A stretch of 64,000 nucleotides of DNA from assembly GCA_016869025.1 (NCBI GenBank), contig VGFA01000001.1, forward strand, positions 140,309 through 204,308. The letters run 5' to 3'. Every line of letters begins with the position of its first letter. Within the stretch, counting starts at the first letter, position 1. This DNA comes from Armatimonadota bacterium. GTDB taxonomy: Bacteria; Sysuimicrobiota; Sysuimicrobiia; Sysuimicrobiales; Humicultoraceae. Below are positions 240-39,792 of the stretch, piece by piece. The position numbers and the translations under genes were made by a program. Under the pieces are notes generated by a model. It did no database searches. It was not told the origin of the DNA and worked only from the letters and a program-made list of their open reading frames with translations.

Positions 240-695
240 ATGCCACCTCGCATCAGCACGATCTTGGTACCGGTTGATTTCTCCACGGGGTCCGCGGCTG
301 CGGTCGAGTGGGCTCAGGCCCTTGCCGGCGCTTTCGGCGCGAAGATCGTCCTGCTCAGCGTGATTGACGTATCGGTGAGTGCTATCATGGGCGGCCCTGG
401 CGGCGTCATGGTTCCGCCGCCCCCGGAATCGCTCCTGGACCAGATGCGTGAAGAGGCGCGCACGGAGATGGCGGCAGTGGCCGCCCGCGTGCCGGGCGCG
501 ACGCCCGTGATCAGGGAAGGCACGCCGCGGCACGAGATCCTCGAGGTTGCCGCCGAGGTCAAGGCAGACCTGATCGTCATGGGCACGCACGGACGCACGG
601 GGCTTGCGCACCTGCTGTTTGGGAGCGTGGCGGAGCACGTGGTCCGGCACGCCGAAGTACCCGTCTTCACCGTTAGGGGGTCAAAGGAGTCATGA
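240..695 (+). CDS. Universal stress protein (UspA family)
   Basis: 151 aa. The N-terminus ILVPVDFS and the motif IVMGTHGRTGLAHLLFGSVAEHVVRHAEVPVFTV are the classical Usp ATP-binding signature. Confidence 0.85.
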   Translation: MPPRISTILVPVDFSTGSAAAVEWAQALAGAFGAKIVLLSVIDVSVSAIMGGPGGVMVPPPPESLLDQMREEARTEMAAVAARVPGATPVIREGTPRHEILEVAAEVKADLIVMGTHGRTGLAHLLFGSVAEHVVRHAEVPVFTVRGSKES

Positions 696-1778: not shown

Positions 1779-1894
1779 GCCGCCCTCAGACTGAAGCCCG
1801 GCCAATATCCGTCCGGAACCCTATTGTGCCCCCATGTGGCTTCCCTACGATGGAGCCAGCCGCAAGCGCGGCGGAATCGGCGGGGTTGTGTGCC

Positions 1895-2605
1895 ATGCTT
1901 GTTCGCGATCGGATGAGTGCTCCAGCGATCACCGCGGAGACCAGGACCTCACTGGCAGAGGCCCTGGGCCTGATGCGCCGGCTCGGGATCCGCCGGCTCC
2001 CGGTGCTGCAGCGAAGCCGGCTCGTGGGGATCGTCACCTGGACCGACCTCATGCGCGCGCAGCCCTCCCTTGTCGCGGGGGTGGATGCCGAGGCGGCCGC
2101 TGCCTTCCTGGAGCGGACCGCGGTACGCGAGATCATGAGCCCGGGCCCCATCACGATAGGGCCCGACGCGCCGATCGAGGCCGCAGCGGTAATCATGCGG
2201 CGCGAGAAGATCGGCGGACTCCCGGTCGTCGAGAAGCGGTCGCTTCTGGGCGTGGTCACCGAGAGCGACATCTTCGAGGCGTTCATTGACCTCACCGGCC
2301 TGCGCCAGGACGGCGCACGTCTGGTGGTGGATCTTTCTGGCCGCGCAAATGCCATCGCCGGACTCGCGGCCATCGCCGACGGTGCCGGTGTTCCCCTTGA
2401 CTCTCTGGCCACCTACAGGCAGTGTGATCGAAGGCTGGCCGTAGTGCGCGTGGCCGCGCCGTACCCCCTGCACCTTGTTGAAGCGTTGAGCGAAGGGGGA
2501 TTCCCGGTGCTGCACCTTGCCGCCGCCCCGTCGGAATTGGACTCGATGAAGGGGAAGCGGCGGTACTCGACCTACTCTCGCGCCTGGGAGTCCACGGCGC
2601 GGTAG
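1895..2605 (+). CDS. CBS-CBS-ACT domain protein (AcuB-like paralogue 1)
   Basis: Two CBS motifs are present (GIRRLPVLQRSRLVGIVTWTDL and IGGLPVVEKRSLLGVVTESDIFEAF), followed by an ACT-like C-terminus. The start is chosen at MLVRDRM. The ORF-track N-terminal extension back to 1460 is Arg/Gly-rich and rejected. Confidence 0.75.
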   Translation: MLVRDRMSAPAITAETRTSLAEALGLMRRLGIRRLPVLQRSRLVGIVTWTDLMRAQPSLVAGVDAEAAAAFLERTAVREIMSPGPITIGPDAPIEAAAVIMRREKIGGLPVVEKRSLLGVVTESDIFEAFIDLTGLRQDGARLVVDLSGRANAIAGLAAIADGAGVPLDSLATYRQCDRRLAVVRVAAPYPLHLVEALSEGGFPVLHLAAAPSELDSMKGKRRYSTYSRAWESTAR

Positions 2606-6397: not shown

Positions 6398-6480
6398 ACC
6401 CTAGGGACGTCGCAAACGACCGGTCGTGCGCGGCACCTATGGGCGCCTCGCGGCCCATATCCTATGATGTCCACGGAGGG

Positions 6481-7269
6481 ATGCCCCGAATGCTGACTGG
6501 GTCGCTTCAGGTCGGCCCCCCTGTTCCTGCCGCCGCGGGAGCAGGAGGCGTCCTGGACGGCACGCTGCTGTTTGCCCGGTTCGCCTTCATGCCCAATCAC
6601 CTGGGCTACTGCGGCGACGACTCCAACGCCACGCTCCTCGCCTACATGCGGGAAAGCGTATCCGATCAGGGGCTGCGCCGCCACCTCAACGCGTTCTCCG
6701 GAGCCCTGCCCTATCTTCGTGTGATCGCGGAGTCCAACGGCATAGCCGATCCGTTTGACGCGCGGGTTGTGGAGGCATACTGGATCGGCAACGGCCTTCT
6801 GGAGACCGTGGACTGGGCGTTTCACGCCAGGCGTCTCCACGAGCGGTTCAGCGGCCGCGTGCGCCCGGCCACCATGGAGCTGCTGGTGGGCAAGCCGCGC
6901 GCCGGTGCGCGTGCCCACCACGCCTTCCACGTGTTCGACGTATCATTCCGTACCGGACTGCCCCAGGGCGATGCAGCGCTGGATCTCTGCCGCATCGGCT
7001 GGGGGACGGTCAACGCAGTGGAACCCGTTGCCTTCACGGTGACGTACCGGCCGATCGTCCTGCGACAGGGACGGCTTTGCTTTGGCGAGCCCCAGACGGA
7101 GCGTGTGCTTCGGGCGATGGGCACGGATCAGTTCCTGGATGAAGCGTCGGTGGGAGACGTGATCGCCTTCCACTGGCGGTGGGCATGCCTCAAGCTCACC
7201 CCGGCGCAGGTGGCCAACCTCGAACGGTACACCCAGGGCATGCTGGCCCTGGCAAACCAGACTTTCTGA
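6481..7269 (+). CDS. Conserved hypothetical protein embedded in the nickel-transport/hyp cluster
   Basis: The ORF runs 6364-7269. The likely start is the ATG at 6481 or 6490, because a GGAGGG sits 9 nt before 6490. No recognisable catalytic motif was found. It has four Cys residues. The sequence is soluble. Confidence 0.5.
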   Translation: MPRMLTGSLQVGPPVPAAAGAGGVLDGTLLFARFAFMPNHLGYCGDDSNATLLAYMRESVSDQGLRRHLNAFSGALPYLRVIAESNGIADPFDARVVEAYWIGNGLLETVDWAFHARRLHERFSGRVRPATMELLVGKPRAGARAHHAFHVFDVSFRTGLPQGDAALDLCRIGWGTVNAVEPVAFTVTYRPIVLRQGRLCFGEPQTERVLRAMGTDQFLDEASVGDVIAFHWRWACLKLTPAQVANLERYTQGMLALANQTF

Positions 7270-7280
7270 GGCAGAGCCGG

Positions 7281-7520
7281 ATGCACGAGGTGGCAATCGC
7301 ACAGGCCCTGCTGACCGAGGTAGAAGCCGCGGCTTCGCGGCACGGCCTGAAGAGCGTTTCAGCGGTGGGCATCTGCGTGGGACAGAACAGCGGCGTCGCG
7401 GCAGAGCCCTTGATGCAGGCGTTCGAGATCCTACGCGGGGGCTGCGCGGGTTGCGCGGTGCTCGATCTGAGGACCACCGAGGGCACCGACCTCCGCATGG
7501 AGTGGCTGGAGGGAGAATGA
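7281..7520 (+). CDS. hypA: HypA-like nickel-insertion protein, N-terminal Ni domain only (zinc finger absent)
   Basis: It starts MHEVAIAQALL, which carries the HypA Met-His-Glu nickel-binding N-terminus. It is only 79 aa. It has a single CAGC pair instead of the CxxC-x12-CxxC zinc site. The stop overlaps the hypB ATG. Confidence 0.65.
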   Translation: MHEVAIAQALLTEVEAAASRHGLKSVSAVGICVGQNSGVAAEPLMQAFEILRGGCAGCAVLDLRTTEGTDLRMEWLEGE

Positions 7521-8251
7521 CCGTGCGCGTGGAGGTAGTGGAGCGCATCCTGCGTGCCAACGATGCGCTGGCCGCCGAGGTCCGCGGACTGCTCGACCGG
7601 GCTGGCATCACGGCCGTCAACCTGATTGGTTCCCCGGGCAGCGGTAAGACCTCTCTCCTGGAACGGACTGCGGCCCTGCTCCACCCACGCCTTCGCCTCG
7701 GTGTCATAGAGGGAGACATCGCCACGACCCGCGATGCGGAGCGCGTTGCCCGCTGCGGTATCCCCGCAGTGCAGATCGAGACCCGCCTGGTAGGCAACGC
7801 GTGCCACCTGGACGCGAGCATGGTACAGACCGCGCTCGGTCGCCTGCCGCTGGCGGACGTGCAGGTCCTGTTCATCGAGAACGTCGGAAACCTGGTCTGT
7901 CCCGCGGCGTACGACGTCGGCGAGCACCTGCGCGTCGTGGTGGCAAGCGTTCCCGAGGGCGACGACAAGGTGTACAAGTATCCGTCCACATTCTCCAGGG
8001 CAGACGCGGTGGTCCTGAACAAGATAGACCTCGTTGCGGCCACCGAGTTCTCGCTCGAGGTCTTCACAGCCGGGCTGCGCGAGGTAACGGCGGCGCCGCT
8101 CTTCCCGGTCTCGGCACGCACCGGAGAAGGCGTGGCGGACTGGATCACCTGGATAGAGGCACGGCAGACCTGTCACGCGCGCGATGCGGCCCACCCCGCA
8201 ACGGCCGCCGGTCAGGATCCGGCGGTGTCAGACGGCACAGGGGCGGGCTAG
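7517..8251 (+). CDS. hypB: Hydrogenase nickel incorporation GTPase HypB
   Basis: It has a GSPGSGKTSL P-loop, an ENVGNLVCP motif and an NKIDL motif. The N-terminus lacks the Cys/His-rich metal site found in many HypB proteins. Confidence 0.9.
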   Translation: MTVRVEVVERILRANDALAAEVRGLLDRAGITAVNLIGSPGSGKTSLLERTAALLHPRLRLGVIEGDIATTRDAERVARCGIPAVQIETRLVGNACHLDASMVQTALGRLPLADVQVLFIENVGNLVCPAAYDVGEHLRVVVASVPEGDDKVYKYPSTFSRADAVVLNKIDLVAATEFSLEVFTAGLREVTAAPLFPVSARTGEGVADWITWIEARQTCHARDAAHPATAAGQDPAVSDGTGAG

Positions 8252-8265
8252 TCAAGGGGGACGAC

Positions 8266-8742
8266 ATGGAGGGATACTCTCCGACCGAGTTGCTGCGCTC
8301 CTCGCACCTGTTTGGGGCGCTGGAGCCCCAGCATCTGGAGAAGCTGGCCGCGATTGCCTCGGAGGTCACCTGGGCCGAGGGCCAGGTGATATTCCGGGAA
8401 GGCGAGGCCGATGACAGGTTGTACCTGGTGGTTGAGGGACTGGTGGCGCTGGAGATGTACATCCCCAATCGCGGCCGCGCCACGATCCTGACCGCCGGCC
8501 CGCACGAGATATTCGGGTGGTCGGCGGCCGTACCGGTTGTCGGGAAGAAGACCGCCGGCGCGCGCGCCCTGCAGAGGACGCGGGCCATTGCCATAGATGC
8601 GGGCGCGCTGTGCGCGGCCTGCGAGCAGGATCACGACCTCGGCTTCTACGTCTATCGCACCCTGGCAGATGTTATTGCCAGCCGCCTGACCGCGACGCGC
8701 CTGCAACTGCTGGACGTGTACGCGGTTGGCAAGGGAGAGTGA
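8266..8742 (+). CDS. Stand-alone cyclic-nucleotide-binding (CAP effector) domain protein, no DNA-binding domain
   Basis: 158 aa with a CAP_ED fold (FGALEP...IFGWSAAVPVVGKKTAGARALQ). The phosphate-binding Arg-Thr-Ala is Lys-Thr-Ala here. Its 3' end overlaps the hydrogenase beta subunit gene. Confidence 0.7.
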   Translation: MEGYSPTELLRSSHLFGALEPQHLEKLAAIASEVTWAEGQVIFREGEADDRLYLVVEGLVALEMYIPNRGRATILTAGPHEIFGWSAAVPVVGKKTAGARALQRTRAIAIDAGALCAACEQDHDLGFYVYRTLADVIASRLTATRLQLLDVYAVGKGE

Positions 8743-9877
8743 GGGACGGTTGATGGTTGAGCAGACACCACCGCTTGGCGGGCAGGTGGTAATCTCCAAG
8801 CCAGCCCTGCAGCAGATCTTCGATGCGCTGCGCACGGTCGGCTACTGCCTGATTGGCCCGACCGTGCGCGGGGATGCCATTGTGTACGACGAGATCGCCC
8901 TCCTGGACGATCTTCCCATCGGGTGGGCCGATGAGCAGGGGCCGGGCACCTACCGGCTCCATCGCCGCGACGATCAGGCGCACTTCGGGTTCGTCGTCGG
9001 TCCGCACTCGTGGAAGAGGTATCTATACCCGCCGTCGCTGAGACTCTTCTCGACGCGCCGGGACGGGGACGGGTTCAGCGTCGAGGCGAACACCGATTCT
9101 CCGCCCTTGTACGCGTTCATTGGCGTGAGAGGGTGCGAGCTGGCGGCCATCGCCGTGCAGGATCGGGTGTTTCTCGAGGGTCCGGTGCAGGAGCCGCACT
9201 ACAAGACCCGCCGCGAGCGCGCTTTCGTCCTGGCCGTGAACTGCACCGAGCCAGGCGGCTCCTGCTTCTGCGCATCCGTGAGGACCGGCCCCAGGTGTTC
9301 GTCTGGTTTCGACCTGGCCCTGACCGAGATGGACGACGTCTTCCTGCTGGAAGTCGGCTCGGCACTGGGAGCGCAGATGCTGTCCGGGGTTGAGTGGCGG
9401 CTGGCCGGCGCCTTCGACCTGAGCCGCGCCCGGCAGGCAATGGCCGATGCCTTGACGCGCATGGGCAGGGGGCTCAACACCCACAACCTGCCTGATCTGC
9501 TGTACGACAACCTGGAACACCCCCACTGGGAGGACGTGGCGAAGCGCTGCCTCTCGTGCGCCAACTGCACCATGGTGTGCCCCACCTGCTTCTGCTCTGA
9601 CGTGCTGGAGGCAAGCGATCTCACCGGCGAGACCGCCGCGCGTGTGCGCGTCTGGGACTCCTGCTTCAATCGCGAGTTCTCCTACGTGTTCGGCGGGCAC
9701 CTTCGGCCAAACACACGCGCCCGATACCGCCAGTGGCTCACGCACAAGCTGGCATCGTGGAAGGACCAGTACGGCGTCTCGGGGTGCGTGGGGTGCGGTC
9801 GGTGCATAACGTGGTGCCCGGTGGGCATTGACCTGACCGCGGAACTTGCGGCCATCAGAGGGGAGAGCCCGCTATGA
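8726..9877 (+). CDS. [NiFe] hydrogenase group-3b-type beta subunit (HydB/AsrA-like 4Fe-4S protein)
   Basis: 383 aa with the ferredoxin motifs CLSCANCTMVCPTCFC and CVGCGRCITWCP. Confidence 0.75.
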   Translation: MARESEGRLMVEQTPPLGGQVVISKPALQQIFDALRTVGYCLIGPTVRGDAIVYDEIALLDDLPIGWADEQGPGTYRLHRRDDQAHFGFVVGPHSWKRYLYPPSLRLFSTRRDGDGFSVEANTDSPPLYAFIGVRGCELAAIAVQDRVFLEGPVQEPHYKTRRERAFVLAVNCTEPGGSCFCASVRTGPRCSSGFDLALTEMDDVFLLEVGSALGAQMLSGVEWRLAGAFDLSRARQAMADALTRMGRGLNTHNLPDLLYDNLEHPHWEDVAKRCLSCANCTMVCPTCFCSDVLEASDLTGETAARVRVWDSCFNREFSYVFGGHLRPNTRARYRQWLTHKLASWKDQYGVSGCVGCGRCITWCPVGIDLTAELAAIRGESPL

Positions 9878-10743
9878 ACCCAACCCAGGCCAAGAGCCAA
9901 CGCCCACCATCTACCGGCCACCCCCTGGTACCCCAGCCGGCGGTGATCACCCACGTGCAACCCGAGGCGCAGGGCGTTACGACGTACACGCTGGAGTTCA
10001 ATGACCCGGCCGTGCGCGAGGCATACCGCTTTTGCCCTGGCCAGTTCAACATGCTCTACCTGCCGGGCATCGGGGAGTCGGCCATATCCATCAGCTCGGA
10101 TCCGGCTGAGCCCGCCCTCCTGCGTCATACGATCCGCTTCGCCGGCAACGTCACCCAGGCCATCTCCAGGATGGATGCCGGCGGCGTGATAGGCGTGCGC
10201 GGCCCCTACGGAAACCCCTGGCCCGTGGACCGGGCAGTGGGCAACGACCTGATAATCGTGGCCGGAGGCATCGGCCTGGCCCCTCTGCGCCCGGTAATCT
10301 ACCACGTTCTCAGGCACAGGGCCGACTACGGCAAGGTTACCATCCTGAACGGTGCGCGTCTCCCGACCGACCTGCTCTACCCGCAGGAGTACGACCTGTG
10401 GCGTAGCCGAGACGTCGAGGTCGTCGTGACCGTGGACCGCGCCGACGAGGCGTGGAAAGGCCGCGTGGGCGTGGTACCCATGCTGTTCTACGCGGTGAGG
10501 CCCGACCCCAAGCGCACGACCGTCTTCACTTGCGGGCCGGAAATCATGATGCACTTCGTGGTCTACGAGGCGCTGGCGCGTCGAGTCCCCAAGGAACGCA
10601 TCTACCTGTCGCTGGAGCGCAACATGAAATGCGCTGTTGCATTCTGCGGTCGCTGCCAGTACGGCCCGACCTTCCTGTGCAAGGATGGGCCGGTCCTGAG
10701 TTACGACCGCATTGAGCCGTTCTTCACCGTGGAGGAGTTCTGA
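9874..10743 (+). CDS. [NiFe] hydrogenase gamma subunit (FAD/NAD(P)-binding, 2Fe-2S; HydG/AsrB-like)
   Basis: 289 aa with a ferredoxin-reductase-type fold. The C-terminus carries [17 protein letters not shown]. Its ATG overlaps the previous TGA. Confidence 0.75.
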
Positions 10744-11543
10744 TGGCTACTCCCAAGAAGCGCAAGCCCAGCCTGGCGGTGTTCAAGTTCGCGTCATGCG
10801 ACGGCTGCCAGCTTTCGCTGCTGGATTGTGAGGATGCCGTGCTCGCCGTGGCCGACGCGGTGGAGATTGCCTATTTCGTCGAGGCCCGCCGGCAGGCACT
10901 TGCCGGCCCCTATGACGTGACCCTGGTCGAGGGCTCGGTAACCACCGAAGAGGAAGTCGAGCGCATCAAGGAAGTACGGCGCCAATCCGGGCTGCTGGTG
11001 ACCATCGGCGCGTGCGCCACCTCCGGCGGCATCCAGGCACTGCGCAACTGGGCGGACGTGGGCGAGTTCACGCGGACCGTTTACGCCAGCCCCGAGTACA
11101 TCCACACGCTGGATCGCTCGCGTCCGATCAGCGATTTCGTGCCCGTGGACTTCGAGCTGCGCGGTTGCCCCATCAGCAAGCAGCAGCTCGTGGACCTTGT
11201 CACCTCGCTGCTGATCGGGCGCAAGCCGTCGGTACCGGAACACGCGGTGTGCAACGAGTGCAAGCGGCAGGGGACGGTCTGCGTGATGGTCGCGGAGGGG
11301 GTCCCGTGCCTGGGTCCGGCCACGCAGGCCGGGTGCGGCGCGATCTGCCCGGCCTACAACAGGGGGTGCTACGGGTGCTTCGGCCCAATGGATCTGTCCA
11401 ATCCGGCCGCGCTCGGCGCCCGCTTCATCGCGATGGGACAGACCGCTCGTGACGTCAGCCGCGCCTTCCGCGGCTTCAACGGCTACTCGGCGGTCTTCCG
11501 GGCGGCCAGCGAGCAGTTTGAAAAGGACGCCATCCCAAGTTAG
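10743..11543 (+). CDS. [NiFe] hydrogenase small (delta) subunit
   Basis: 266 aa with Cys clusters typical of the hydrogenase small subunit / NuoB-like family ([22 protein letters not shown]). Confidence 0.8.
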
Positions 11544-11559
11544 TCAGGGGAGAGAGGCA

Positions 11560-12864
11560 ATGGCCGAGAGACGCATCAACGTGGACTACCTGGCCCGCGT
11601 CGAGGGTGAGGGCGCGCTGCGGGTCGTGATCAAGGACGATCGCGTTACCGACGTCCAGCTCAACATATTCGAGCCGCCACGCTTCTTCGAGGCGTTTCTG
11701 CGAGGCCGCACGCCCCAGGAGACCGTGGACATCACGGCCCGAATCTGCGGCATCTGCCCGGTGGCCTACCAGATGAGCGCCGCCCACGCGTTGGAGAAGG
11801 CCCTGGGCGTGACCCCTCCGCCCGGCGTACGCGCCCTGCGCCGGCTGCTCTACTGCGGCGAGTACATCGAGAGCCACGTGTTGCACATCTTCATGCTGCA
11901 TGCGCCGGATTTCATCGGACACGAGTCGGCCATCAGCATGGCCACCGATCCGGCCCTGCGTCCGCTGGTCGAGCAGGCGCTGCGAATGAAGAAGATCGGC
12001 AACCACCTGGTGACGGTCATCGGTGGGCGCGAGATCCACCCGGTCTCGGCATGCGTGGGCGGCTTCTACCGGGCGCCGCGCAAGTCGGAACTCGTGGCCC
12101 TGGTTCCGGATCTCGAGTGGGGCCTCGAGAGGGCGGTGGAGGCCGTGCGGTGGGCGGCCACGCTGGACTATCCTGACTTCACCGCCGACTACGAGTTCGT
12201 CTCCCTGTCACATCCTGATGAGTACCCCTACAACGAGGGGCGCGTGGTGTCGTCCAGAGGGCTGGACATCCCGATAGAAGAGTACGAGCGGCACTTCCTA
12301 GAGGAGCACGTCGAGCACTCCAACGCGCTTCACTCGCGCCGCGCGGGCAGCAAGACGAGCTACATGGTGGGGCCGCTGGCGCGGGTGAACCTGAACTTCG
12401 ACCGGCTCTCGCCCAGGGCCCAGTCGGCGGCGCGTGACATCGCGCTGACCCTGCCCGTGCGCAACCCGTTCATGAGCCTGCTCGCGCGCGGGCTGGAGCT
12501 GGTTCATGCCTATGAGGAGGCGCTCCAGTTGATCGCCTCCTACGTGGAACCCGTTCCCTCAAGGTCGCCCATCCCCACGCCTCCGAGGGCCGGGGAGGGA
12601 GCCCATGCCACCGAGGCACCGCGCGGTCTGCTGTACCACCGGTACACGGTAGACGCAGCGGGCCTGATCGCCGGTGCCAGGATCGTACCGCCGACCGCGC
12701 AGAACCTGAGGCGCATGGAGGACGACCTGTGGCAGTACGTGCCCGGGGTGCTGGCTCTACCGCTCGAGGAGGCCACGCTGCGCTGCGAGCAGCTCGTGCG
12801 CAGTTACGATCCGTGCATCTCGTGCGCCACGCACTTCTTGAAGCTCGACCTTGAGCGGGAATAG
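11560..12864 (+). CDS. [NiFe] hydrogenase large (alpha) subunit
   Basis: It has the N-terminal [10 protein letters not shown] motif (first CxxC Ni ligands). The C-terminal [10 protein letters not shown] is followed by a short tail, which is the protease cleavage site. 434 aa is the size of a group-3 enzyme. Confidence 0.9.
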
Positions 12865-13360
12865 GGAGAGAACTGCCGGGGCCAAGGCCCCATCCGCGCT
12901 GATCATAGGCATTGGTAACGCGTCGCGGGGCGACGATGCGGCAGGGCTGATCGCCGCCCGCCTGATCAGGGATGCGCTTCTTTCCCTCCCGGATCCCCCG
13001 GATCCGGGGCGCGTTGCGGTGCTCGAACAGGATGGCGAGGGCACCGCCCTTGTCGCGGCCTGGAAGGGCGCGGAGACCGTGATCCTGATAGATGCCGCCC
13101 TCTCCGGCGCGGCTCCCGGCAGCATACACCGCTTCGATGCCCTCGGCCAGCCGCTCCCGGCCGGGTTCCGCGCTTGCTCGACTCACGCGTTCGGAGTGGC
13201 AGAGGCGATCGAGCTGGCCAGGGCGCTGGACCGGCTGCCGCAGCGGCTCATCGTCTACGGAATCGAGGGCCTGTCGTTCTCGGCAGGCGAGGTGCCCTCG
13301 GAGGCGGTCGAGGCCGCGGTACGGGCGGTGGTCGAGCGCGTGCTGGCCGACGTAAGGTAG
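12851..13360 (+). CDS. Hydrogenase maturation endopeptidase (HycI/HoxW family)
   Basis: It has the [16 protein letters not shown] motif and the D...H core. It overlaps the large-subunit stop. Confidence 0.8.
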
Positions 13361-13368
13361 CGCCGCCG

Positions 13369-13383
13369 GAAATACTGTTTCCG
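13369..13383. promoter_or_regulatory. Short palindrome GGAAA-TACTG-TTTCC 40 nt upstream of acuA
   Basis: Perfect 5-bp arms with a 5-bp spacer, read directly from the sequence. It is not GC-rich, so it is more operator-like than terminator-like. Confidence 0.25.
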
Positions 13384-13424
13384 TCCGATGGCCTGCCGGA
13401 CCCGGGCGGGCTATTCTGTCATAG

Positions 13425-14057
13425 GTGAGAACAGCCATGGCCCCGGCCGCTGAGCAGGCACGGGCATTCCCCGAGATCCTCGCGCTCGAAGGCGGCGCAG
13501 CACTCGCGGAGTACGAGATCGCTCCAGGCCTGGGCGCGTTCTCCTCTTACGGACGCCGGCGCGCGCAGGTCGTCCGCGAGACGCTGGGCAGGGGGCTGCG
13601 GGCTCCGGGTGGGGAGGCCTTCGCCGCAGTCCTTGGCGACACAATCATCGGCTACCTGCTCCTGGTGCCGGCCGGCATTGACCAGCCCTGGGGCCGGCTG
13701 GGGGATCCCAGGGTGCTTGAGGTCGGCATAGAGGTGGCGCGCGGGCACAGAGGGCAGGGAATCGCTCAATCGTTGTTCCGCCGTGCCTTCGCCCGACCGG
13801 TGGTGGAGTCGCGGATATACGTGGCCACCGGGTACGTGTGGTGCTGGGACATCGAGGACACCGTCATCGAGGCCGGGATCTACGCCGACCGCCTGCTGGC
13901 GCTCTTCGGGCGGTTTGGGTTCCGGCGCGAGTGGACCAACGAACCCAACGTGGCCCTCGAGCCGCTGAACTTCCTGGCGGTGCGGATCGGGCAGGACGTG
14001 CCCGCGGCGCTCGTCAGCCGCTTTCGCCTGGCACAGCGGGGCGAACAGGTGGCCTGA
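13425..14057 (+). CDS. acuA: AcuA-family GNAT protein acetyltransferase
   Basis: 210 aa, the same length as B. subtilis AcuA. It aligns with AcuA across the GNAT core (IIGYLLLVP, VLEVGIEVARGHRGQGIAQSLF, YVATGYVWCWDIED, NFLAVRIGQDV). Confidence 0.7.
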   Translation: MRTAMAPAAEQARAFPEILALEGGAALAEYEIAPGLGAFSSYGRRRAQVVRETLGRGLRAPGGEAFAAVLGDTIIGYLLLVPAGIDQPWGRLGDPRVLEVGIEVARGHRGQGIAQSLFRRAFARPVVESRIYVATGYVWCWDIEDTVIEAGIYADRLLALFGRFGFRREWTNEPNVALEPLNFLAVRIGQDVPAALVSRFRLAQRGEQVA

Positions 14058-14067
14058 GGGAGCGGCT

Positions 14068-14715
14068 ATGCGCGTGCGCACCCTGATGACGTCGCCGGCG
14101 CTCGTGGTTGGGCCGGAGGCCCCGGCCTGGGAGGCCCTGGGGCTCATGCGGAGGCACCGCATCCGGCGCCTGCCGGTTGTGGACGGCGAGGTCCTGGTCG
14201 GGATCATTACCTGGACCGATGTGGTCCGCGTGCATGCTCCGGCGGTTGAGGGCCCCAGGCGCACTCCAACCCTGTCGGTGGGAGTGCTCGTCAGGCACCT
14301 GATGGCCAGCGCGCCCGTGACGGTTGATCCGGACGCCACGATTGAGCAGGCGGCCGCGCTCATGCGCCGACACAAGATCGGGGGGCTGCCTGTGGTCGAG
14401 GACGGCCGGCTGGTCGGCGTCATCACCGAGAGCGACCTGTTCGAGGCCTTCGCGGAGATGCTTGGGGCCGGCCCGCATGAGGTCAAGCTCCACCTGGCAG
14501 TTGGCAGCATTTCCGTTGAACTTCCAAGAATCGTGTCTAGGCTGACGAAGGCCGGAATCCCCATAGTTGCCGTGCACACGCTGCGCACCTCGGGTGCGGA
14601 GGTCGTAGAACTCGTGGTTCACGAGAACGACGTGGGGCGCGCCCGGGAGGTATTGCACCGTCTTGCCCTCGAAACAGACGTCGTGGAAGCGCAGGAGAGG
14701 GGGGACCGCGCGTGA
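14068..14715 (+). CDS. acuB: AcuB-like CBS-CBS-ACT protein (paralogue 2)
   Basis: 215 aa with two CBS motifs and a C-terminal ACT domain. It lies immediately downstream of the acuA homologue, as in the Bacillus acuABC operon. Confidence 0.75.
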   Translation: MRVRTLMTSPALVVGPEAPAWEALGLMRRHRIRRLPVVDGEVLVGIITWTDVVRVHAPAVEGPRRTPTLSVGVLVRHLMASAPVTVDPDATIEQAAALMRRHKIGGLPVVEDGRLVGVITESDLFEAFAEMLGAGPHEVKLHLAVGSISVELPRIVSRLTKAGIPIVAVHTLRTSGAEVVELVVHENDVGRAREVLHRLALETDVVEAQERGDRA

Positions 14716-14993
14716 CCGCGAGCAGAGAAGGCAATGCTTCCGTCGGGGTGATCCCGCCGCAGCGGGTGCTCATCGCCGCCGAGCGGTGCAAGGGCTGCGG
14801 GCTTTGCGTGGCCGTCTGCCCGCCTGAGATCATGGAGTTGGGGTCGCTCAACCGCCTGGGGTATGCTGTTGTGCGCGTGACCGATCAGGCCCGGTGCACT
14901 TCCTGCACGGCGTGCGCGCTGGTCTGCCCGGAGGTGGCCATCACTGTGATGCGCCCCCAGCGGGCCCGCCAGACGCGGGAGGGCGCCAAGTGA
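14712..14993 (+). CDS. korD: 2-oxoacid:ferredoxin oxidoreductase delta subunit (2x[4Fe-4S] ferredoxin)
   Basis: 93 aa with the motifs [12 protein letters not shown] and [12 protein letters not shown]. Confidence 0.85.
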
Positions 14994-16042
14994 AGCGCAC
15001 CTTGATGAAGGGAAACGAGGCGCTGGCCGAGGCGGCCATTCGCGCCGGTTGCAGGGCCTATTTCGGCTATCCGATCACGCCCCAGAACGAGGTGCCGGAG
15101 TACATGGCCCGCCACATGCCAGGGGCGGGTGGCGTCTTCGTGCAGGCAGAGAGCGAGATCGCGGCCATCAACATGGTCCACGGCGCTGCGGGCGCCGGCG
15201 TCCGCGCTATGGCCACCACCAGCAGCCCCGGATTTAGTCTGATGACAGAAGGCCTTTCCTACATGATCGGCTCCCGGCTGCCGTGCGTCGTGGTCAACGT
15301 GATGCGCGGAGGTCCTGGGCTCGGCAACATTGCACCGGCGCAGGGAGATTACTTCCAGGTTACCCGCGGGCTGGGACACGGTGACACCCACGGCATCGTG
15401 CTAGCGCCGTCCACGGTCCAGGAGATCGTTGACCTCATGCCCGTCGCGTTCGAGCTGGCCGAGCGCTACCGGCTGCCAACGGTGATCGCCGCAGACGGCA
15501 TACTCGGGCAGATGATGGAACCGGTGGCGCTGCCTGAACCCATCGCGCCTCCGCCTCCTCCTGAGTGGGCCACGACCGGCGCGGTGGGAAGCCCCCGCGT
15601 GATCTCGTCCATCTATCTGGCGCCGGAAGAGCTCGAACAGCACGTCCTTTCCCTGATGAGGACCTACCAGGAAATCCGCGAGCGCGAGCAGCGATGGGAG
15701 GCCTACCGCGCCGACGACGCGGAGGTGCTCGTTGTGGCCTACGGGACCGCGGCCCGCGTTGTGCGATCGGCCGTGGATCGCGTGCGCGCGCAGGGAGTCG
15801 CAGCCGGATTGATCAGGCCGATCACCCTCTGGCCGTTCCCGACTTCCGCGTTCGAGATGTCGCCGCGCCGGTGGCTGGTTGTGGAACTCAGCGCGGGACA
15901 GATGGTGGAGGACGTTCGCCTCGCCGTATCGGGCAGGGCGCCGGTCGGATTGTACGGCCGCGTCGGTGGGGTAGTGCCTTCTCCGGCGGAGGTGTCGGAG
16001 GCGATTCGGGCGGCCGTGGCCGAGGAGGTGGCCTGGGCATGA
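14990..16042 (+). CDS. korA: 2-oxoacid:ferredoxin oxidoreductase alpha subunit
   Basis: It has the [11 protein letters not shown] and [18 protein letters not shown] signatures. A GTG start overlaps the korD stop. An alternative ATG lies at 15005. Confidence 0.85.
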
Positions 16043-16800
16043 TCAAGGACATGGTTGAGGTTACGGCCAGGCCCCGCTCGCTGGTGGACGTGCCCCTGCA
16101 CTACTGCCCGGGTTGCACGCACGGCATAATCCACCGTCTGGTGGCCGAGGCCATTGACAGTCTGGGCATCCGGGAGCGGACTATCGGCGTAGCGTCGGTT
16201 GGGTGCTCGGTCTTCATCTACAACTACCTCGACGTGGACTTCCAACAGGCCCCGCACGGCAGGGCGCCGGCGGTTGCCACGGGCATCAAGCGCGTACTGC
16301 CCGACCGCGTCGTGTTCACCTACCAGGGGGACGGCGATCTGGCCTCGATAGGCGCCGCTGAGATCCTCCACGCCGCCGCGCGGGGCGAGCGCATCACGGT
16401 CATCTTCGTGAACAACGCGATCTACGGCATGACCGGCGGTCAGATGGCGCCGACCACGCTGTCCGGAATGAAGACCACGACCACCCCCTTCGGCAGGGAG
16501 ATCCGCCAGGCGGGGGGGGCGCTGCGCGTGGTCGAACTCCTGGCCGGCATGGACGGCGTGGCATACGCCGCGCGCGAAGCGGTCACGAGCCCTGCCCGTA
16601 TCCACCGGGCCCGCCGCGCCGTAGAGGCCGCGTTCAGGGCGCAGATCGAGGACAGGGGTTTGGGCATAGTCGAGCTGCTCTCGACCTGTCCGGTGAACTG
16701 GAAGCTCCCGCCGGTCGAGGCGGTCGCGTGGTGCGAGGCCAACATGATCCCCGCGTTCCCGCTGGGCGTCCTGAAGGACACCACCGGGAGCGGGGGGTAG
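16039..16800 (+). CDS. korB: 2-oxoacid:ferredoxin oxidoreductase beta subunit (TPP-binding)
   Basis: It has YCPGCTHG and [12 protein letters not shown] motifs. Its ATG overlaps the korA TGA. Confidence 0.85.
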
Positions 16801-16804
16801 CAGC

Positions 16805-17344
16805 ATGGCCGTCCACGAGATCGTGATAGCCGGCTTCGGGGGACAGGGCGTGCTGTTTCTGGGTGAAGTCCTCGCGCAGGCGGCCCTCAGCGAGGGGCGC
16901 GAGGTAACCTGGCTGCCCGCTTACGGACCGGAGCAGCGCGGCGGCACCGCGTACTGTACGGTCGTGATCAGCAGCGAACCCATCGGCTCGCCTGTGGCCT
17001 CAGACCCAACCGTGGTGATCGCGATGAACCGGCCGTCGCTGGACCGGTTTGAGCCCGCGGTTCGGCCCGGGGGCCTGATCGTATGCGATAGCACGCTGAC
17101 GGGGAGGGTACCTGAGCGCGCCGACGTCCAGGCCATTGCGGTGCCGGCGACGGCCATCGCCGCCGAGCTGGGCGCGGCGCGGGCGGCGAATGTCGTGCTG
17201 CTGGGCGCCACAATGGCGGCGAGACCGATCCTTACGATAGAGAGCGTGCGCGCGGCCCTGGACGGGATGGTGGCAGACCCTCAGGTCATGGCGCGTAACC
17301 TTGCGGCGTTCGAGCGCGGCGCGCGCGAGGGCTCCCGCCCATGA
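16805..17344 (+). CDS. korC: 2-oxoacid:ferredoxin oxidoreductase gamma subunit
   Basis: 179 aa. It has the gamma-subunit signature IAGFGGQGVLFLGEVL...GPEQRGGTAYCTVVIS. Confidence 0.85.
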   Translation: MAVHEIVIAGFGGQGVLFLGEVLAQAALSEGREVTWLPAYGPEQRGGTAYCTVVISSEPIGSPVASDPTVVIAMNRPSLDRFEPAVRPGGLIVCDSTLTGRVPERADVQAIAVPATAIAAELGAARAANVVLLGATMAARPILTIESVRAALDGMVADPQVMARNLAAFERGAREGSRP

Positions 17345-18027
17345 AGCAGGCCCGAGACGCTTCGCCGGGAGGCCCCAGGACCATCCGGCTCATTGTCGCC
17401 GACGACCATGCCATCGTGCGCGAGGGCATCAAGCGCCTGCTCCAGGCCGAGCCGGACATCGAGGTCGTGGGTGAGGCGGGTGACGGTGTCGCGGCCGTGG
17501 AGATGGCCCAGGATCTCAAGCCCGACGTTGTGTGTCTGGATGTCAGCATGCCCAGGATGAATGGGGTGGAGGCGACCCGGCGCATCAGGGCCTCCCTGCC
17601 GGACGTCGGGGTGGTCGTCCTGACAATGCACGAGGACGAGGACTACGTGTTCGAGTTGGTGAAGGCAGGCGCTTCGGGCTACGTCTTGAAGCGGGCCAGC
17701 GCCCGCGACCTGGTGGATGCCGTGCACGCCGTGGCCGGGGGCCACACATTCCTGCATCCAATGATTGCGCGGCGGCTGGTCTCGGATCACGAGACATCCA
17801 GCAGCCGCGACGAAGAACGCCGGCGGTTCGACGGCCTGACCGAACGGGAACGCGAGGTCGTACGCCTGATCGCCGATGGCCTGACCAACAAGGAGATCGC
17901 GGAACGGCTCCACATCAGCGTCAAGACCGTCGAAACCCATCGCACGCACATCATGGAGAAGCTCGATCTGCACGATCGCGCACACCTGGTGCGCTACGCT
18001 GTCCGGAAGGGGCTGGTCACCGCATGA
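17341..18027 (+). CDS. Orphan two-component response regulator, NarL/FixJ (LuxR-HTH) family
   Basis: The receiver domain is IRLIVADDH...VVCLDVSMP...VLK. The C-terminal LuxR HTH is LTEREREVVRLIADGLTNKEIAERLHISVKTVETHR. Both ends overlap neighbouring genes (ATGA). Confidence 0.85.
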   Translation: MKQARDASPGGPRTIRLIVADDHAIVREGIKRLLQAEPDIEVVGEAGDGVAAVEMAQDLKPDVVCLDVSMPRMNGVEATRRIRASLPDVGVVVLTMHEDEDYVFELVKAGASGYVLKRASARDLVDAVHAVAGGHTFLHPMIARRLVSDHETSSSRDEERRRFDGLTEREREVVRLIADGLTNKEIAERLHISVKTVETHRTHIMEKLDLHDRAHLVRYAVRKGLVTA

Positions 18028-18716
18028 TCCCGAAGGATCAGGGATGGCCGTACTCGGCCCGGGCCCTGGCCGCCCGCATCGAGCACTCGGTCCTGGCGCC
18101 CGAAGCCGGACAGGCCGACGTGGAATCCGGTTGCACCGTGGCCCGTGCCCGGGGAGTTCGATCCGTGGTGGTCAAGCCGGTGCACGTCGCCTTGGCCCGC
18201 CGGCTGCTGGAAGGGACCGGGATCCGCGTGGTGAGCGTGATCGGGTTCCCCCACGGTAACTCGACGCCGGAGGTGAAGGCCCTGGAGGTCTCCGCCGCGA
18301 TCCGGGACGGTGCCGATGAGGTGGACGTCGTGGTGAACGTCGGCGCCCTGTGCGAGGGCCGATGGGAGCCGGTGGCGGAGGAACTTCGGGCGGTCGTGGC
18401 CGCGTCAGGCGGCAGTCCGGTGAAGGTGATCCTGGAGACCGCGCTGCTGACCGATGCCGTCAAGGTTCGTGCGTGCGGGCTCGCGGATGCCTCGGGCGCG
18501 GCCTATGTGAAGACTTCCACGGGATTTGGCAGGGCAGGGGCAACGGTGGCCGACGTGGCGCTGTTGCGGGGCAATGTGGGGTCTGGCGTCGGAGTGAAGG
18601 CGTCAGGGGGAATCCGCACGCTGGCGGATGCGGCGGCAATGATCGCCGCGGGAGCCGACCTCATCGGAACGAGCCAGACCGAAGCGATCCTGGACGAGGC
18701 CGGCTCCGCCGCCTGA
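18024..18716 (+). CDS. deoC: Deoxyribose-phosphate aldolase
   Basis: It has the VVKP and KTSTGFG class-I aldolase Schiff-base lysine context and is DeoC-sized at 230 aa. Confidence 0.8.
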   Translation: MIPKDQGWPYSARALAARIEHSVLAPEAGQADVESGCTVARARGVRSVVVKPVHVALARRLLEGTGIRVVSVIGFPHGNSTPEVKALEVSAAIRDGADEVDVVVNVGALCEGRWEPVAEELRAVVAASGGSPVKVILETALLTDAVKVRACGLADASGAAYVKTSTGFGRAGATVADVALLRGNVGSGVGVKASGGIRTLADAAAMIAAGADLIGTSQTEAILDEAGSAA

Positions 18717-18790
18717 CCTCGCGCGGCGCGGCGACCCTCGGTTATCCCGCAGAGGAGAAAGCAAGTCCCGCCCTGAAATATGAGGGCGCG

Positions 18791-19192
18791 ATGGCGGATG
18801 AGGAACGCGCCACACAAGGCGAGCCCTCAGGCGACCTGCTGCGCCGGCTGCTCGCCGACGCGGCAGCCCTGGGCGGAGTGTACGGACGCGCCACACGAGA
18901 ACACCTGCTCGCCCTGGCAAGGGACTTCGCGTTTGCCGCGTTGATGGTAGGCGCCGCTGTGGCGCTGGGCGTTATGGCCATAGGCCTGGCCGTCGCCGCG
19001 ATCGTGATGGTGGCCGCGATCTGGCTGCCTGGCTGGCTGGCCGCCCTGGTGGTCCTGGGCATCATGATAACCGCGATGGGCATCCTGCTGTCGCTCGGCA
19101 AGGTCCGGCTGCAGCGGCGGAGGGCGGCCTGGGCGGTGCGCATGGCCGAGGAGATCCGTTGGCTGCAGACCCTTTTCACACGCCGGAGCTAG
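18791..19192 (+). CDS. Holin-X-like (phage_holin_3_6 family) small membrane protein
   Basis: 133 aa with two TM helices and a charged C-terminus. The pattern is typical of the actinobacterial Holin-X family. This call rests on the pattern only. Confidence 0.5.
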   Translation: MADEERATQGEPSGDLLRRLLADAAALGGVYGRATREHLLALARDFAFAALMVGAAVALGVMAIGLAVAAIVMVAAIWLPGWLAALVVLGIMITAMGILLSLGKVRLQRRRAAWAVRMAEEIRWLQTLFTRRS

Positions 19193-19398
19193 CCGCGCTC
19201 CACCAGCGCATCGGTCGGGACGTGGCCGAACTGCGCTCTCGGTTGCGCAAGGGCGGCGTTACCCTCCGCCTTGGTCCGGTCGTCTCTGATCGGGCGGGTG
19301 TTACCTGGATCACCGCGCTGGGCGCGGCCGCAGGACTGCTGGCAGGGCGGCTCCTGCGGGCGCGGTGCGGTGGCGGACGCCCGGCCCGGGGCCTATAA
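19159..19398 (+). CDS. Small hypothetical protein overlapping the end of the holin-like gene
   Basis: 79 aa ORF with a C-terminal hydrophobic segment. No homology was recognised. It may or may not be real. Confidence 0.25.
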   Translation: MAADPFHTPELAALHQRIGRDVAELRSRLRKGGVTLRLGPVVSDRAGVTWITALGAAAGLLAGRLLRARCGGGRPARGL

Positions 19399-19420
19399 TG
19401 AGTTCTGGAGGTAACTGAAG

Positions 19421-19630
19421 ATGACTGGATTCGTACCACCGGCCGTGATCGGCAACGTGGGTCCCCTGGAGATGCTCGTTATCCTCTTGATATTGCTGCT
19501 GCTCTTTGGAGCCAGCCGGCTCGCAGGCCTGGGGGCGGCGGCTGGGAAGACGATAAAGGAGTTCCGCAAGGCGATCCGGGACGTGGAGGACGACGTGAAC
19601 GAAACGAAACCCTCGAAGCCGGATGCCTAG
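19421..19630 (+). CDS. tatA: Sec-independent translocase TatA/E
   Basis: It has the TatA hinge and amphipathic helix (GPLEMLVILLILLLLFGASRLAGLG...IKEFRKA). A GGAGG ribosome-binding site lies upstream. Confidence 0.9.
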   Translation: MTGFVPPAVIGNVGPLEMLVILLILLLLFGASRLAGLGAAAGKTIKEFRKAIRDVEDDVNETKPSKPDA

Positions 19631-19635
19631 ATCAC

Positions 19636-20370
19636 ATGCACGACCGACCGATGACGATCGTGGAGCACTTGGAGGAGCTGCGGCGGCGGCTCCTCATCGC
19701 GTTTGCCGCGCTGGGTGTGGGTGCGGTGATTGGATTCGCCTTTGTGGACCGAGTGCTCGACCTGCTCATCCGCCAGTTGCAGGTATCGCATGTCGTCTTC
19801 TTTGCCCCGGCGGAGGCGCTGTTCATCCGCATCAAGATCGCCCTGCTGCTGGGTGTCTTCGTCGGCCTGCCGGTGATACTGTACCAGCTCTGGGCGTTCA
19901 TCGCCGTGGGGCTCACCAGGACCGAGCGGCGCGCGGTGATGGGACTGCTGCCGCCTTCGCTGGTGCTATTCGGGCTGGGCGCTGCGTTTGGGCTGTTCGT
20001 GATCATGCCCGTGGGCGTCCGGGTCCTGCTCGGGTACCAGACCGAGAGGCTGCAGCCGATGCTGGCGGTTGGGCCGGCCCTCTCGTTCCTTATGGCTTTC
20101 GTGCTGGCGTTCGGGTTCATCTTCCAGCTGCCGATAGTCGTGGTCTTCCTGGCCCGGATGGGCATAGTATCGCCCGCCACGCTGGCGGCGGGCCGCCGGT
20201 ACGCCATAGTCGGCATCGTCGTGCTTTCCGCGGTACTGACGCCTGGGACCGACGTGGTCTCCCAGATGCTCATGGCGGTGCCAACGTACGCGCTCTACGA
20301 AATCAGCATCTGGCTGGCACGATTGGTCGCTCCTCGGCCGGCCTCGAGCGTTCAGGCTTACGTCGAGTAG
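19636..20370 (+). CDS. tatC: Sec-independent translocase TatC
   Basis: 244 aa six-TM protein with the TatC N-terminal EHLEELRRRL motif. Confidence 0.9.
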   Translation: MHDRPMTIVEHLEELRRRLLIAFAALGVGAVIGFAFVDRVLDLLIRQLQVSHVVFFAPAEALFIRIKIALLLGVFVGLPVILYQLWAFIAVGLTRTERRAVMGLLPPSLVLFGLGAAFGLFVIMPVGVRVLLGYQTERLQPMLAVGPALSFLMAFVLAFGFIFQLPIVVVFLARMGIVSPATLAAGRRYAIVGIVVLSAVLTPGTDVVSQMLMAVPTYALYEISIWLARLVAPRPASSVQAYVE

Positions 20371-20379
20371 AGGTGAGCG

Positions 20380-20640
20380 ATGGCCCGTCGCACCCGGAAT
20401 CCCTGGTGGGTCCTGTTCGTAATCATCCTGTTTGGCGGCCTGCTGGGTAGCGTCATCGCCGAGGCGGTGGTCGGCTATCCGGTGCTCGGCTTCCTGGCCC
20501 GCGAGGTCCGCGCCGGCGTTGACCCTCCGGTCACCCTCGACCTGCGAATAATAAGCCTGACCGCGGGCGGGATCGTCCGGCTCAACCTGGCCATGCTGCT
20601 GGGCGTGGTGATCGCGGTCTGGATCTACCGGTTGTTGTAG
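20380..20640 (+). CDS. DUF4321-like small membrane protein
   Basis: 86 aa with two TM segments. It sits between tatC and maf, as in many Firmicutes. Confidence 0.5.
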   Translation: MARRTRNPWWVLFVIILFGGLLGSVIAEAVVGYPVLGFLAREVRAGVDPPVTLDLRIISLTAGGIVRLNLAMLLGVVIAVWIYRLL

Positions 20641-20672
20641 CCCCTCATTCCGGCTGATATACTTGCCCTGAC

Positions 20673-21314
20673 GTGCATATTTCGGCCCCTTTGGGGGACG
20701 GGGTGCCGCCGCTGGTGCTGGCTTCCGCCTCTTCCCGGCGCGCTGAGCTCCTTCGTCAGGTCGGGTGGTCTTTCGAGATCGCCGCAGCGACCCCTGAGGA
20801 GGAGACGCTGGGGGTGATTCCCTCCGGCGCTGACCACCAGGGGTGGACGCTTGACCAGGTGCGGGCGCGCGCTCGAAGGGCCGCGCTGGATAAGGCCAGG
20901 CCTGTCAGCGAAGCACGGCCGGACGCGGTGGTCATCGCTGCCGATACGGTGGTGACGGTGGATGGGATCGTGCTGGGAAAGCCCACGACTGCGGGCGAAG
21001 CCGTGGAGATGCTACATCGCCTCGCGGGCCGCACGCACCACGTGGTCACCGGGGTCGTCGTCGCCCACGGCCGCCGTGGCGTGACGCTGGCCGATGATTC
21101 CACCACGGCAGTGCAGTTCCGGGTGTTGCCGCCGGAGGAGGTCCTCCGGTATGTCGCGTCCGGCGAGCCGATGGATAAGGCGGGGGCGTACGGCATTCAG
21201 GGCCGTGCGGCGCTATTCGTGGAGAAGCTGGAGGGGGACTACTTCGGGGTGGTGGGTCTCCCGCTGGCACGGCTGGCACGCATGCTCGAGACGATCGGCG
21301 TGCGACCGGCCTAG
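20673..21314 (+). CDS. maf: Maf-like nucleoside triphosphate pyrophosphatase (septum formation protein)
   Basis: It has the LVLASASSRRAELL signature. The true start may be the GTG near 20703. Confidence 0.85.
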   Translation: MHISAPLGDGVPPLVLASASSRRAELLRQVGWSFEIAAATPEEETLGVIPSGADHQGWTLDQVRARARRAALDKARPVSEARPDAVVIAADTVVTVDGIVLGKPTTAGEAVEMLHRLAGRTHHVVTGVVVAHGRRGVTLADDSTTAVQFRVLPPEEVLRYVASGEPMDKAGAYGIQGRAALFVEKLEGDYFGVVGLPLARLARMLETIGVRPA

Positions 21315-39718: not shown

Positions 39719-39792
39719 TTCCCAGAGAGCCGTCGGCGTATACTTCGCCCCCAACTGGCCAGGCACCGCGACGGTAGCTACCCTTCATGAGA

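Follow-up and report, generated by a model that had tools for sequence, protein, structure and literature searches.

A response regulator packed into a ferredoxin oxidoreductase operon of Candidatus Sysuimicrobiota, and a conserved palindromic box as its putative operator

The 64,000-nucleotide stretch analysed here (the window; contig VGFA01000001.1, positions 140,309 to 204,308) encodes a response regulator (RR) whose gene directly follows the four genes of a 2-oxoacid:ferredoxin oxidoreductase (OFOR). We favour, at slightly better than even confidence, a reading in which this RR positively autoregulates its own operon through a conserved palindromic box, within a dispersed redox/hypoxia regulon resembling that of DosR/OsdR. 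An earlier note on this DNA had described the RR as an orphan internal cistron of a kor-deoC operon, and had suggested that its dosage is tied to Kor expression, as would permit feed-forward control; our analysis bears out that interpretation only in part.

The response regulator

17341..18027, + strand: response regulator with receiver (REC) and GerE helix-turn-helix (HTH) domains, NarL/FixJ family (Pfam, residues, alignment)

The open reading frame (ORF) starts with ATG and encodes 228 aa, with a third-position G+C fraction (GC3) of 0.83, in a window of 68% G+C where nearly every gene lies on the + strand. The protein exactly matches GenBank MBM3469319.1, labelled 'Armatimonadetes bacterium'. 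Pfam confirms the LuxR/NarL-type assignment made earlier, with an N-terminal receiver (Response_reg, 1.9e-29) and a C-terminal LuxR HTH (GerE, 7.8e-23, residues 165-220). The receiver residues D21-D22, D67, T95 and K117 are all present, and D67 aligns with the acceptor Asp of VraR. Across an alignment of the RR clade (59-100% identity), the acidic pair (D/E21, D22), D67, T95 and K117 are kept in 20/20 members, over which the recognition helix ISVKTV(E/Q)THR(T/A)HIMEKL is almost invariant. Because every phospho-acceptor residue is kept, the RR reads as a standard NarL-family regulator; judged by its sequence, it is a canonical, phosphorylation-competent member of the NarL/FixJ family. A pseudo-receiver acting independently of phosphorylation was ruled out, the catalytic residues being intact here and across the clade. 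The nearest solved structures are VraR (2e-44), NarL (5e-40) and DevR (2e-36). The RR reaches no NCBIfam equivalog, its best model being MctR at 197 bits versus a cutoff of 300, and many clade members are named NreC in JGI annotation.

The oxidoreductase operon and its conservation

13437..14057, + strand: GNAT acetyltransferase, heading the conserved unit (Pfam Acetyltransf_1; syntenic in all relatives)
14068..14715, + strand: CBS-pair protein (Pfam CBS, 1.2e-36; syntenic)
14712..14993, + strand: oxidoreductase delta subunit, 2x[4Fe-4S] ferredoxin (Pfam and curated models)
14990..16042, + strand: oxidoreductase alpha subunit, VorB subfamily (NF005507, 504 bits versus a cutoff of 399; POR_N and PFOR_II)
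16039..16800, + strand: oxidoreductase beta subunit, TPP-binding (TPP_enzyme_C)
16805..17344, + strand: oxidoreductase gamma subunit (Pfam POR, 1.9e-41)
18024..18716, + strand: deoC, deoxyribose-phosphate aldolase, variable downstream cistron (TIGR00126, 233 bits versus a cutoff of 117)

The RR gene is coupled to both of its neighbors, as previously reported. Its ATG overlaps the gamma-subunit TGA at 17341-17344 (context GCCCATGAAG / CCCATGAAG), its TGA overlaps the deoC ATG at 18024-18027 (context CGCATGATCC / CGCATGATC), and the shared letters are ATGA at either end. Along the seven cistrons that run from the CBS gene to deoC, every junction is a 4-nt overlap, the exception being that of beta and gamma subunits, with a gap of 4 nt. 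The 4-nt ATGA overlap is the commonest operon junction in bacteria and is unremarkable alone; the above-chance feature is the conservation of the gamma/RR junction, rather than the overlap itself.

To describe that conservation, this genome was compared with nine relatives at an RR identity of 75% or more (RRs 75-100%), and in which the OFOR alpha subunits are 73-94% identical across the ten genomes. The order GNAT, CBS, (Usp or CBS-BON in some), delta/alpha/beta/gamma, RR is kept in 9/9 relatives, and the gamma and RR genes overlap or lie at most 7 nt apart in nine of the ten genomes; where they overlap, they share ATGA, GTGA, TTGA or 20 nt, and where they do not, the gap is 1-7 nt. The exception, locus L013, carries an AhpD/carboxymuconolactone-decarboxylase-like ORF (6048-6530) between the gamma subunit and the RR, plus a 120-nt spacer with a weak match to the box described below (GAATCGGGCGGTGAACTGATGT, 21 nt upstream of TATCGT), possibly a promoter of its own for the RR. 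The RR is followed by deoC in five of the ten genomes, by a P-type ATPase gene in four, and by neither in one, where a holin-X-like gene follows directly. Since this downstream gene varies, the conserved link is that between oxidoreductase and RR, not RR and deoC, and among the conserved cistrons the RR comes last and is not internal. The RR is thus packed into the oxidoreductase operon as the earlier note proposed, and its place behind the oxidoreductase subunits is kept in all ten genomes, with a close junction in nine, whereas the deoC side of the arrangement is kept in five.

This arrangement is conserved at roughly family level. A recent rearrangement particular to this genome, which the note had named as grounds for dismissing its own reading, is refuted by the presence of the arrangement in ten genomes, as is a degenerate pseudo-receiver by the invariant catalytic residues; we regard either as wholly improbable. 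The relatives include Ca. Fervidifonticultor, which is placed in Ca. Sysuimicrobiota (CSP1-3), family Humicultoraceae (NCBI taxonomy; PMC11604079). Public labels are inconsistent: L011, L015, L016 and this metagenome-assembled genome (MAG) appear as 'Armatimonadota' or 'Ca. Nitrosymbiomonas' versus Sysuimicrobiota.

The delta, alpha, beta and gamma genes together encode a four-subunit OFOR. The sole curated model that it passes is the 'VorB' subfamily model of the alpha subunit; the Kor/Oor equivalogs fall far under cutoff (alpha, NF007206, 208 versus 579), and the beta, gamma and delta subunits are below all cutoffs. The 'kor' substrate label is therefore not secured, and the enzyme is referred to here simply as an OFOR.

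A conserved palindromic box in front of the operon

13370..13391, + strand: box 1, AAATACTGTTTCCGTCCGATGG, imperfect 7-4-7 palindrome, putative operator in the hycI/GNAT gap (conservation and position weight matrix [PWM])
13412..13417, + strand: -10-like hexamer TATTCT, 20 nt downstream of box 1, with no recognisable -35 (same spacing in 10/10 genomes)
8753..13360, + strand: four-subunit NiFe hydrogenase (8753-12864; group 3b-like composition) and HycI protease, directly upstream of box 1 (Pfam)

Only one gap of any size interrupts this string of genes, the 76 nt that separate hycI from the GNAT gene. Within it, the block AAATAsKGTwTcCrTCCGATrG is conserved in 10/10 genomes and is followed exactly 20 nt later by TATGCT or TATTCT, likewise in all ten, again with no recognisable -35. 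The element is a box of approximately 22 nt with the consensus AATCGGGC-N4-GCCCGAT, an imperfect palindrome. When scored with a PWM trained on other genomes only, box 1 reaches 23.9. As a null, the maximum score was taken from each of 150 Markov-1 simulated windows; 0.7% of these had a maximum of at least 20 and 6.7% of at least 17, and the highest maximum was 21.2.

A scan for sigma-70 consensus promoters across 6000-21000 returned 0, an absence that is compatible with an activator-dependent promoter. Over the same interval, three intrinsic terminator-like sites were found versus 5.4 expected, none of them at an operon boundary, and Rfam detected only a tmRNA in the whole window, with no riboswitch or leader near the operon. 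Two other explanations of the box were set aside. An alternative-sigma promoter was judged less likely, the site being palindromic and only one locus having a sigma gene; and the 158-aa cNMP-binding protein encoded nearby was rejected as the binder, its only Pfam match being the cNMP-binding domain, with no HTH detected.

The hydrogenase genes upstream match Fer4_22, NAD_binding_1/DHODB_Fe-S_bind, Oxidored_q6, NiFeSe_Hases and HycI. Sysuimicrobiota are described as facultatively anaerobic with group 3b NiFe hydrogenases (PMC11604079), a report that fits the four-subunit enzyme encoded directly upstream of the operon.

The box in other gene contexts

1805..1826: box 2, ATATCCGTCCGGAACCCTATTG, PWM score 18.3 on the complementary strand, then 19 nt, then TACGAT (1846-1851), upstream of the second CBS gene
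1895..2605, + strand: second CBS-pair protein (Pfam CBS, 2.8e-30), paralogue of the operon CBS gene

A PWM built from the ten orthologous boxes only found nothing elsewhere bar one weak match; it proved too narrow, and a broader PWM was then built. Box 2 draws support from its location, because it lies in front of a paralogue of the operon CBS gene. The genes that follow run in the order second CBS gene, hypC-like, peptide/Ni-type ABC transporter, DUF6390, hypA, hypB, cNMP-binding protein and NiFe hydrogenase. The public call of the second CBS protein starts at 1973, which cuts off part of the first CBS domain; the ATG at 1895 is favoured by alignment with the paralogue (14068-14715) and by the position of the box and -10-like hexamer. 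Two weaker boxes, at 51813-51834 (CGATAGGGTTGTCACCTGATGG, 15.6) before an ArsR-family gene (51871-52284) and arsenic-resistance cluster, and at 61984-62005 (TCATAGGGCAGGTGCCTGATAG, 13.3) before a DUF6305 gene (62048-62671), have the right spacing to a TAnnnT hexamer; they were not counted, as their scores lie within the range of the simulated windows. From its translation, the ORF following the DUF6305 gene is gamma-glutamyltranspeptidase-like.

The box recurs beyond the OFOR operon. The loci of RR homologues of 59-65% identity are without the oxidoreductase, and the RR gene lies instead among Usp, CBS-BON, sigma-factor and acetyl-CoA-synthetase-like genes. These loci carry a clearer 7-4-7 palindrome of the same consensus, 19-21 nt upstream of TAnnnT, and it lies ahead of Usp, CBS-BON and sigma genes and also of the RR gene. 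Downstream sites before CBS-BON genes in L017 and L018 were mis-registered, scored approximately 0 and were dropped. As a set chosen with no use of the RR or the box, JGI metagenomes were scanned with an alignment of the GAF-HisKA_3 kinases that are paired with RR homologues of approximately 62% identity (L019, L021), giving 21 loci, mostly of orphan kinases flanked by CBS genes. L098 has the order CBS, kinase, box, CBS, korD, korA, while in L114 and L115 the kinase belongs to a box-preceded unit (Usp, X, CBS/BON, kinase) and tandem boxes stand before the next CBS gene. At a PWM score of at least 15, these kinase-selected loci contain 21 matches in 98 kb, versus eight in 1,052 kb around RR homologues of at most 57% identity, or one in the 173 kb of those with at least 60% G+C. 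At a score of at least 18, there are nine matches versus none. The box, the RR clade and the kinase family are clearly associated across different gene contexts.

These contexts bear on whether the RR itself acts at the box. In a feed-forward arrangement such as the earlier note suggested, the RR would be a passenger cistron that follows oxidoreductase expression and has distant targets, with some other regulator binding the box. The gene packing and tight coupling are indeed real and conserved, RR-box binding is itself only a prediction, and other DNA-binding proteins are encoded near some boxes (a sigma factor in L009, Rrf2 in L114). Against this, the RR clade or its kinase is the only DNA-binding protein or partner shared across the box contexts, in which no other gene is common besides the CBS-domain genes, whose products have no DNA-binding domain; the box stands directly before the RR gene itself in the homologue loci; and the window's cNMP-binding protein is without a detected HTH. 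A passenger RR also requires a second, unseen regulator for the box, and we consider this explanation unlikely. An autoregulatory loop is favoured over feed-forward control because the conserved operator-like box precedes the operon.

The same data bear on the sign of regulation. The RR might instead bind as a repressor, with negative autoregulation buffering the levels of oxidoreductase and RR: a protein bound at approximately -54 to -33 could occlude RNA polymerase, and palindromic LuxR-type sites can work either way. However, the lack of a recognisable -35 is typical of activator-dependent promoters, and a site centered near -43 is where class II activators classically bind, DevR among them. 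Moreover, the tandem boxes upstream of CBS genes in the kinase loci recall DevR-activated promoters, which use multiple adjacent sites. Repression is accordingly given a low probability, and activation by the RR is preferred.

Histidine kinases in the window and in related loci

No histidine kinase was found in the window, in agreement with the earlier note. A phmmer --max search of all six-frame segments with a HisKA_3 kinase query gave a best E of 0.14; no kinase was present among the Pfam hits of the source-contig called genes (approximately 0-27 kb of the window) or in a Pfam scan of the remaining large ORFs; and none occurs within 7-10 kb of the RR in the nine relatives. Extending the source contig 10 kb past the left edge revealed a HisKA_3 kinase (337 aa) with its own NarL-type RR (locus L091, 1-1297). 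This kinase, the nearest one on the contig, lies approximately 9-10 kb beyond the left window edge and approximately 27 kb from the RR, and its partner is 52% identical to the operon RR with a different recognition helix, ISPKSVETYRARIIEKL. The pair precedes a Psr/Phs-like molybdopterin oxidoreductase operon, followed by MoeA/MobB, a zinc-dependent alcohol dehydrogenase and the Usp gene at window positions 240-695. Since the nearest kinase is this far off and paired with another RR, the operon RR is an 'orphan' by position, and the possibility that a cognate kinase lies just outside the window is only weakly realised.

The RR homologues of 58-62% identity, in contrast, adjoin GAF-HisKA_3 kinases (L019, L021, L099, L106, L108). 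The GAF domain of these linked kinases features an invariant GDCRC motif with a third Cys approximately 18 residues later (GDCRC...C), which suggests a Cys-liganded cofactor or a redox-active site, not a His-bound haem as in DosS/DosT. Such kinases were seen at L008 4804-6537(-), L019 1589-3322, L021 10667-11869 and L099 2989-4200, and they occur in soluble (~400 aa) and membrane-anchored (~578 aa) forms. None of the following could be placed in this genome as the cognate kinase: that of L099 from Lake Tanganyika (MBM3450455.1), the nearest candidate from the same lake, whose accession is approximately 18,900 from MBM3469319.1 and which is probably from another MAG; the P0135 kinase, which sits in a different assembly from the kor-RR relatives; the P0136 contexts, with an orphan kinase but no RR after an oxidoreductase; and the L091 kinase, already paired with its own RR.

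It is conceivable that the RR has no dedicated kinase and is phosphorylated by an OFOR-derived acyl phosphate, or by the paired HisKA_3 kinase ~27 kb upstream. The absence of any kinase from the nearest 26 kb here, and from the nearest 7-10 kb in the nine relatives, is in line with this, the operon makes acyl-CoA and encodes a GNAT, and a single kinase is documented to serve two RRs, one of which is an orphan (OsdK with SCO0204 and SCO3818; PMC5069765). Yet close homologues are paired with a specific GAF-HisKA_3 family, orphan copies of which occur in box-controlled clusters, and the upstream kinase's own partner is distant in sequence and in recognition helix. We rate this possibility as improbable, and prefer a dedicated kinase encoded elsewhere.

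Comparison with known systems

The closest functional parallels are DevR/DosR of Mycobacterium tuberculosis and OsdR of Streptomyces coelicolor. All share a NarL-family REC and LuxR HTH architecture, an RR gene packed with a regulon member (with autoregulation predicted here), GAF kinases of which some are orphan like DosT (here, those in relatives' loci), and a GC-rich palindromic operator with a GGGC/GCCC core. Neighbors or regulon-type genes are also alike, comprising Usp, CBS, P-type ATPase, ferredoxin-linked enzymes and NiFe hydrogenase. Among such DosR traits, GAF HisKA_3 kinases and Usp-rich neighborhoods occur in the relatives' loci; the window itself has the Usp gene, two CBS genes and the hydrogenase, and no kinase.

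There are also differences. The DosR recognition helix is KTVKNYVSR, whereas the corresponding segment here is KTVETHRTH. The RR is not a DevR orthologue, with VraR and NarL closer than DevR and no NCBIfam equivalog reached. The linked GAF domain has the Cys motif in place of a haem-binding His, and the RR is attached to an oxidoreductase operon, with its kinase not adjacent. The box also lacks the Dev box form (a 16-20 bp palindrome with GGG(A/C)C...G(T/G)CCC arms 8 nt apart): GGG and CCC are 6 nt apart here (GGGC-N4-GCCC), versus 8 nt in the OsdR consensus AGGGCCGATCGGCCCT (PMC5069765). By analogy, then, the system would work like DosR/OsdR while lying outside that orthologous group.

Staphylococcal NreBC offers a second comparison. 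NreC is a NarL-family RR with a GC-rich palindrome and an oxygen response (PMC8139620); however, neither an NreB-type PAS/[4Fe-4S] kinase nor NreA was seen in any locus, where the linked kinases are GAF-HisKA_3, and the putative targets here are not nitrate or nitrite genes. The Firmicutes envelope-stress regulators VraR/LiaR provide the best solved-structure match, over the full length and with an identical domain layout. The vraR and liaR genes share an operon with those of their kinase and a LiaF-like partner, a context absent here, where the neighbors serve redox metabolism.

The earlier note considered it atypical for an RR to be placed in a metabolic operon. Regulators that lack an adjacent kinase and are co-transcribed with targets are in fact well known: devR shares a transcript with the Usp gene Rv3134c and is autoregulated, and S. 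coelicolor has the orphan RR SCO3818 (PMC5069765). SCO3818, considered with OsdK/SCO0203, resembles the present RR in having no adjacent kinase and close paralogues that are kinase-paired; it differs in that its shared kinase has been located (PMC5069765).

Proposed regulatory circuit

In the model that we favour, a phosphorylated RR dimer would bind box 1, centered at approximately -43 and overlapping the position of the missing -35. The bound RR would activate transcription, such that RR levels rise along with the oxidoreductase. Box 2, before the second CBS gene, would bring the hyp/Ni-transport/hydrogenase stretch into this regulon too. The RR probably responds to redox or oxygen status through a kinase whose gene lies elsewhere, and the likely class is the GAF-HisKA_3 kinase with GDCRC...C, as paired with the 58-62% homologues. 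The system would operate in the manner of the DosR/DevR-OsdR dormancy regulons, which likewise combine a NarL-type RR with partly orphan GAF kinases, a GC-rich palindromic operator, and Usp and CBS genes.

Several observations weigh against this model. The RR-box link is guilt by association at the level of sequence. In this lineage the box has a degenerate left half, and its well-conserved right half could double as a promoter element; its predicted position is also compatible with repression. Box 2, at 18.3, is marginal and not significant on score alone, nor is the L013 spacer box, at 9.8. Because many of the loci and box instances are related, the box counts overstate their independence. 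A GAF-HisKA_3 kinase could not be placed in this genome from the window, its left flank or the candidates from other loci. Finally, the 3' end of the operon is undefined by structure, with no terminator-like site after deoC and a folding z of -1.15 for the deoC-holin spacer.

Other features of the window

Two stand-alone genes encode domains, cNMP-binding and GNAT, that mycobacteria have fused in a cAMP-dependent protein acetyltransferase that modifies a Usp. Here, the cNMP-binding protein (8266-8742; 158 aa, no other Pfam domain found) lies in the hyp-hydrogenase cluster, and the GNAT (13437-14057) heads the oxidoreductase operon. The distant RR loci L009, L017, L018 and L020 carry a GNAT-fused acetyl-CoA-synthetase-like gene.

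The tmRNA gene (38986-39335; Rfam RF00023, 165 bits) is followed by approximately 4 kb of lower G+C (39400-43400; 61-64% versus 68-74%), with minus-strand genes for a cupin-like secreted protein, a TolB-like beta-propeller and a truncated solute-binding fragment. This segment resembles the remains of an island, lying as it does at the usual ssrA integration site. Further downstream, a 1,543-aa ORF (44774-49405) has no Pfam match; owing to its high GC3 (0.85) it is probably a real gene, and by eye it resembles a polytopic membrane protein whose N-terminal segment is Cys-rich (zinc-ribbon-like). A PrsW-family intramembrane protease gene follows (49968-51473).

Implications

General principles are unchanged by these data: both orphan regulators and positive autoregulation occur widely, and 4-nt overlaps are routine. 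The useful by-products are two candidates, a newly defined operator and a class of kinases. More tentatively, and with the odds rather against it, we suggest that the RR and the 7-4-7 box, along with the GAF(GDCRC...C)-HisKA_3 kinases (dispersed and often orphan), comprise an undescribed redox/hypoxia regulon, analogous to that of DosR but independent of it. If so, this regulon would exist in Ca. Sysuimicrobiota and related high-GC uncultured bacteria, where it would switch on the ferredoxin-dependent oxidoreductase, NiFe hydrogenase, Usp and CBS genes, with the regulator hard-wired into its main metabolic target operon and a Cys-liganded GAF domain as the sensor. Should the autoregulatory model favoured above be correct, it would supply a further, independent case of the DosR-type design: a NarL regulator co-transcribed with its regulon and served by GAF kinases whose genes lie elsewhere. 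It would also offer a concrete, testable handle, made up of a single regulator, a single operator sequence and one candidate class of kinases, on how ferredoxin-linked oxidoreductase and hydrogenase are switched in an uncultured, facultatively anaerobic phylum.

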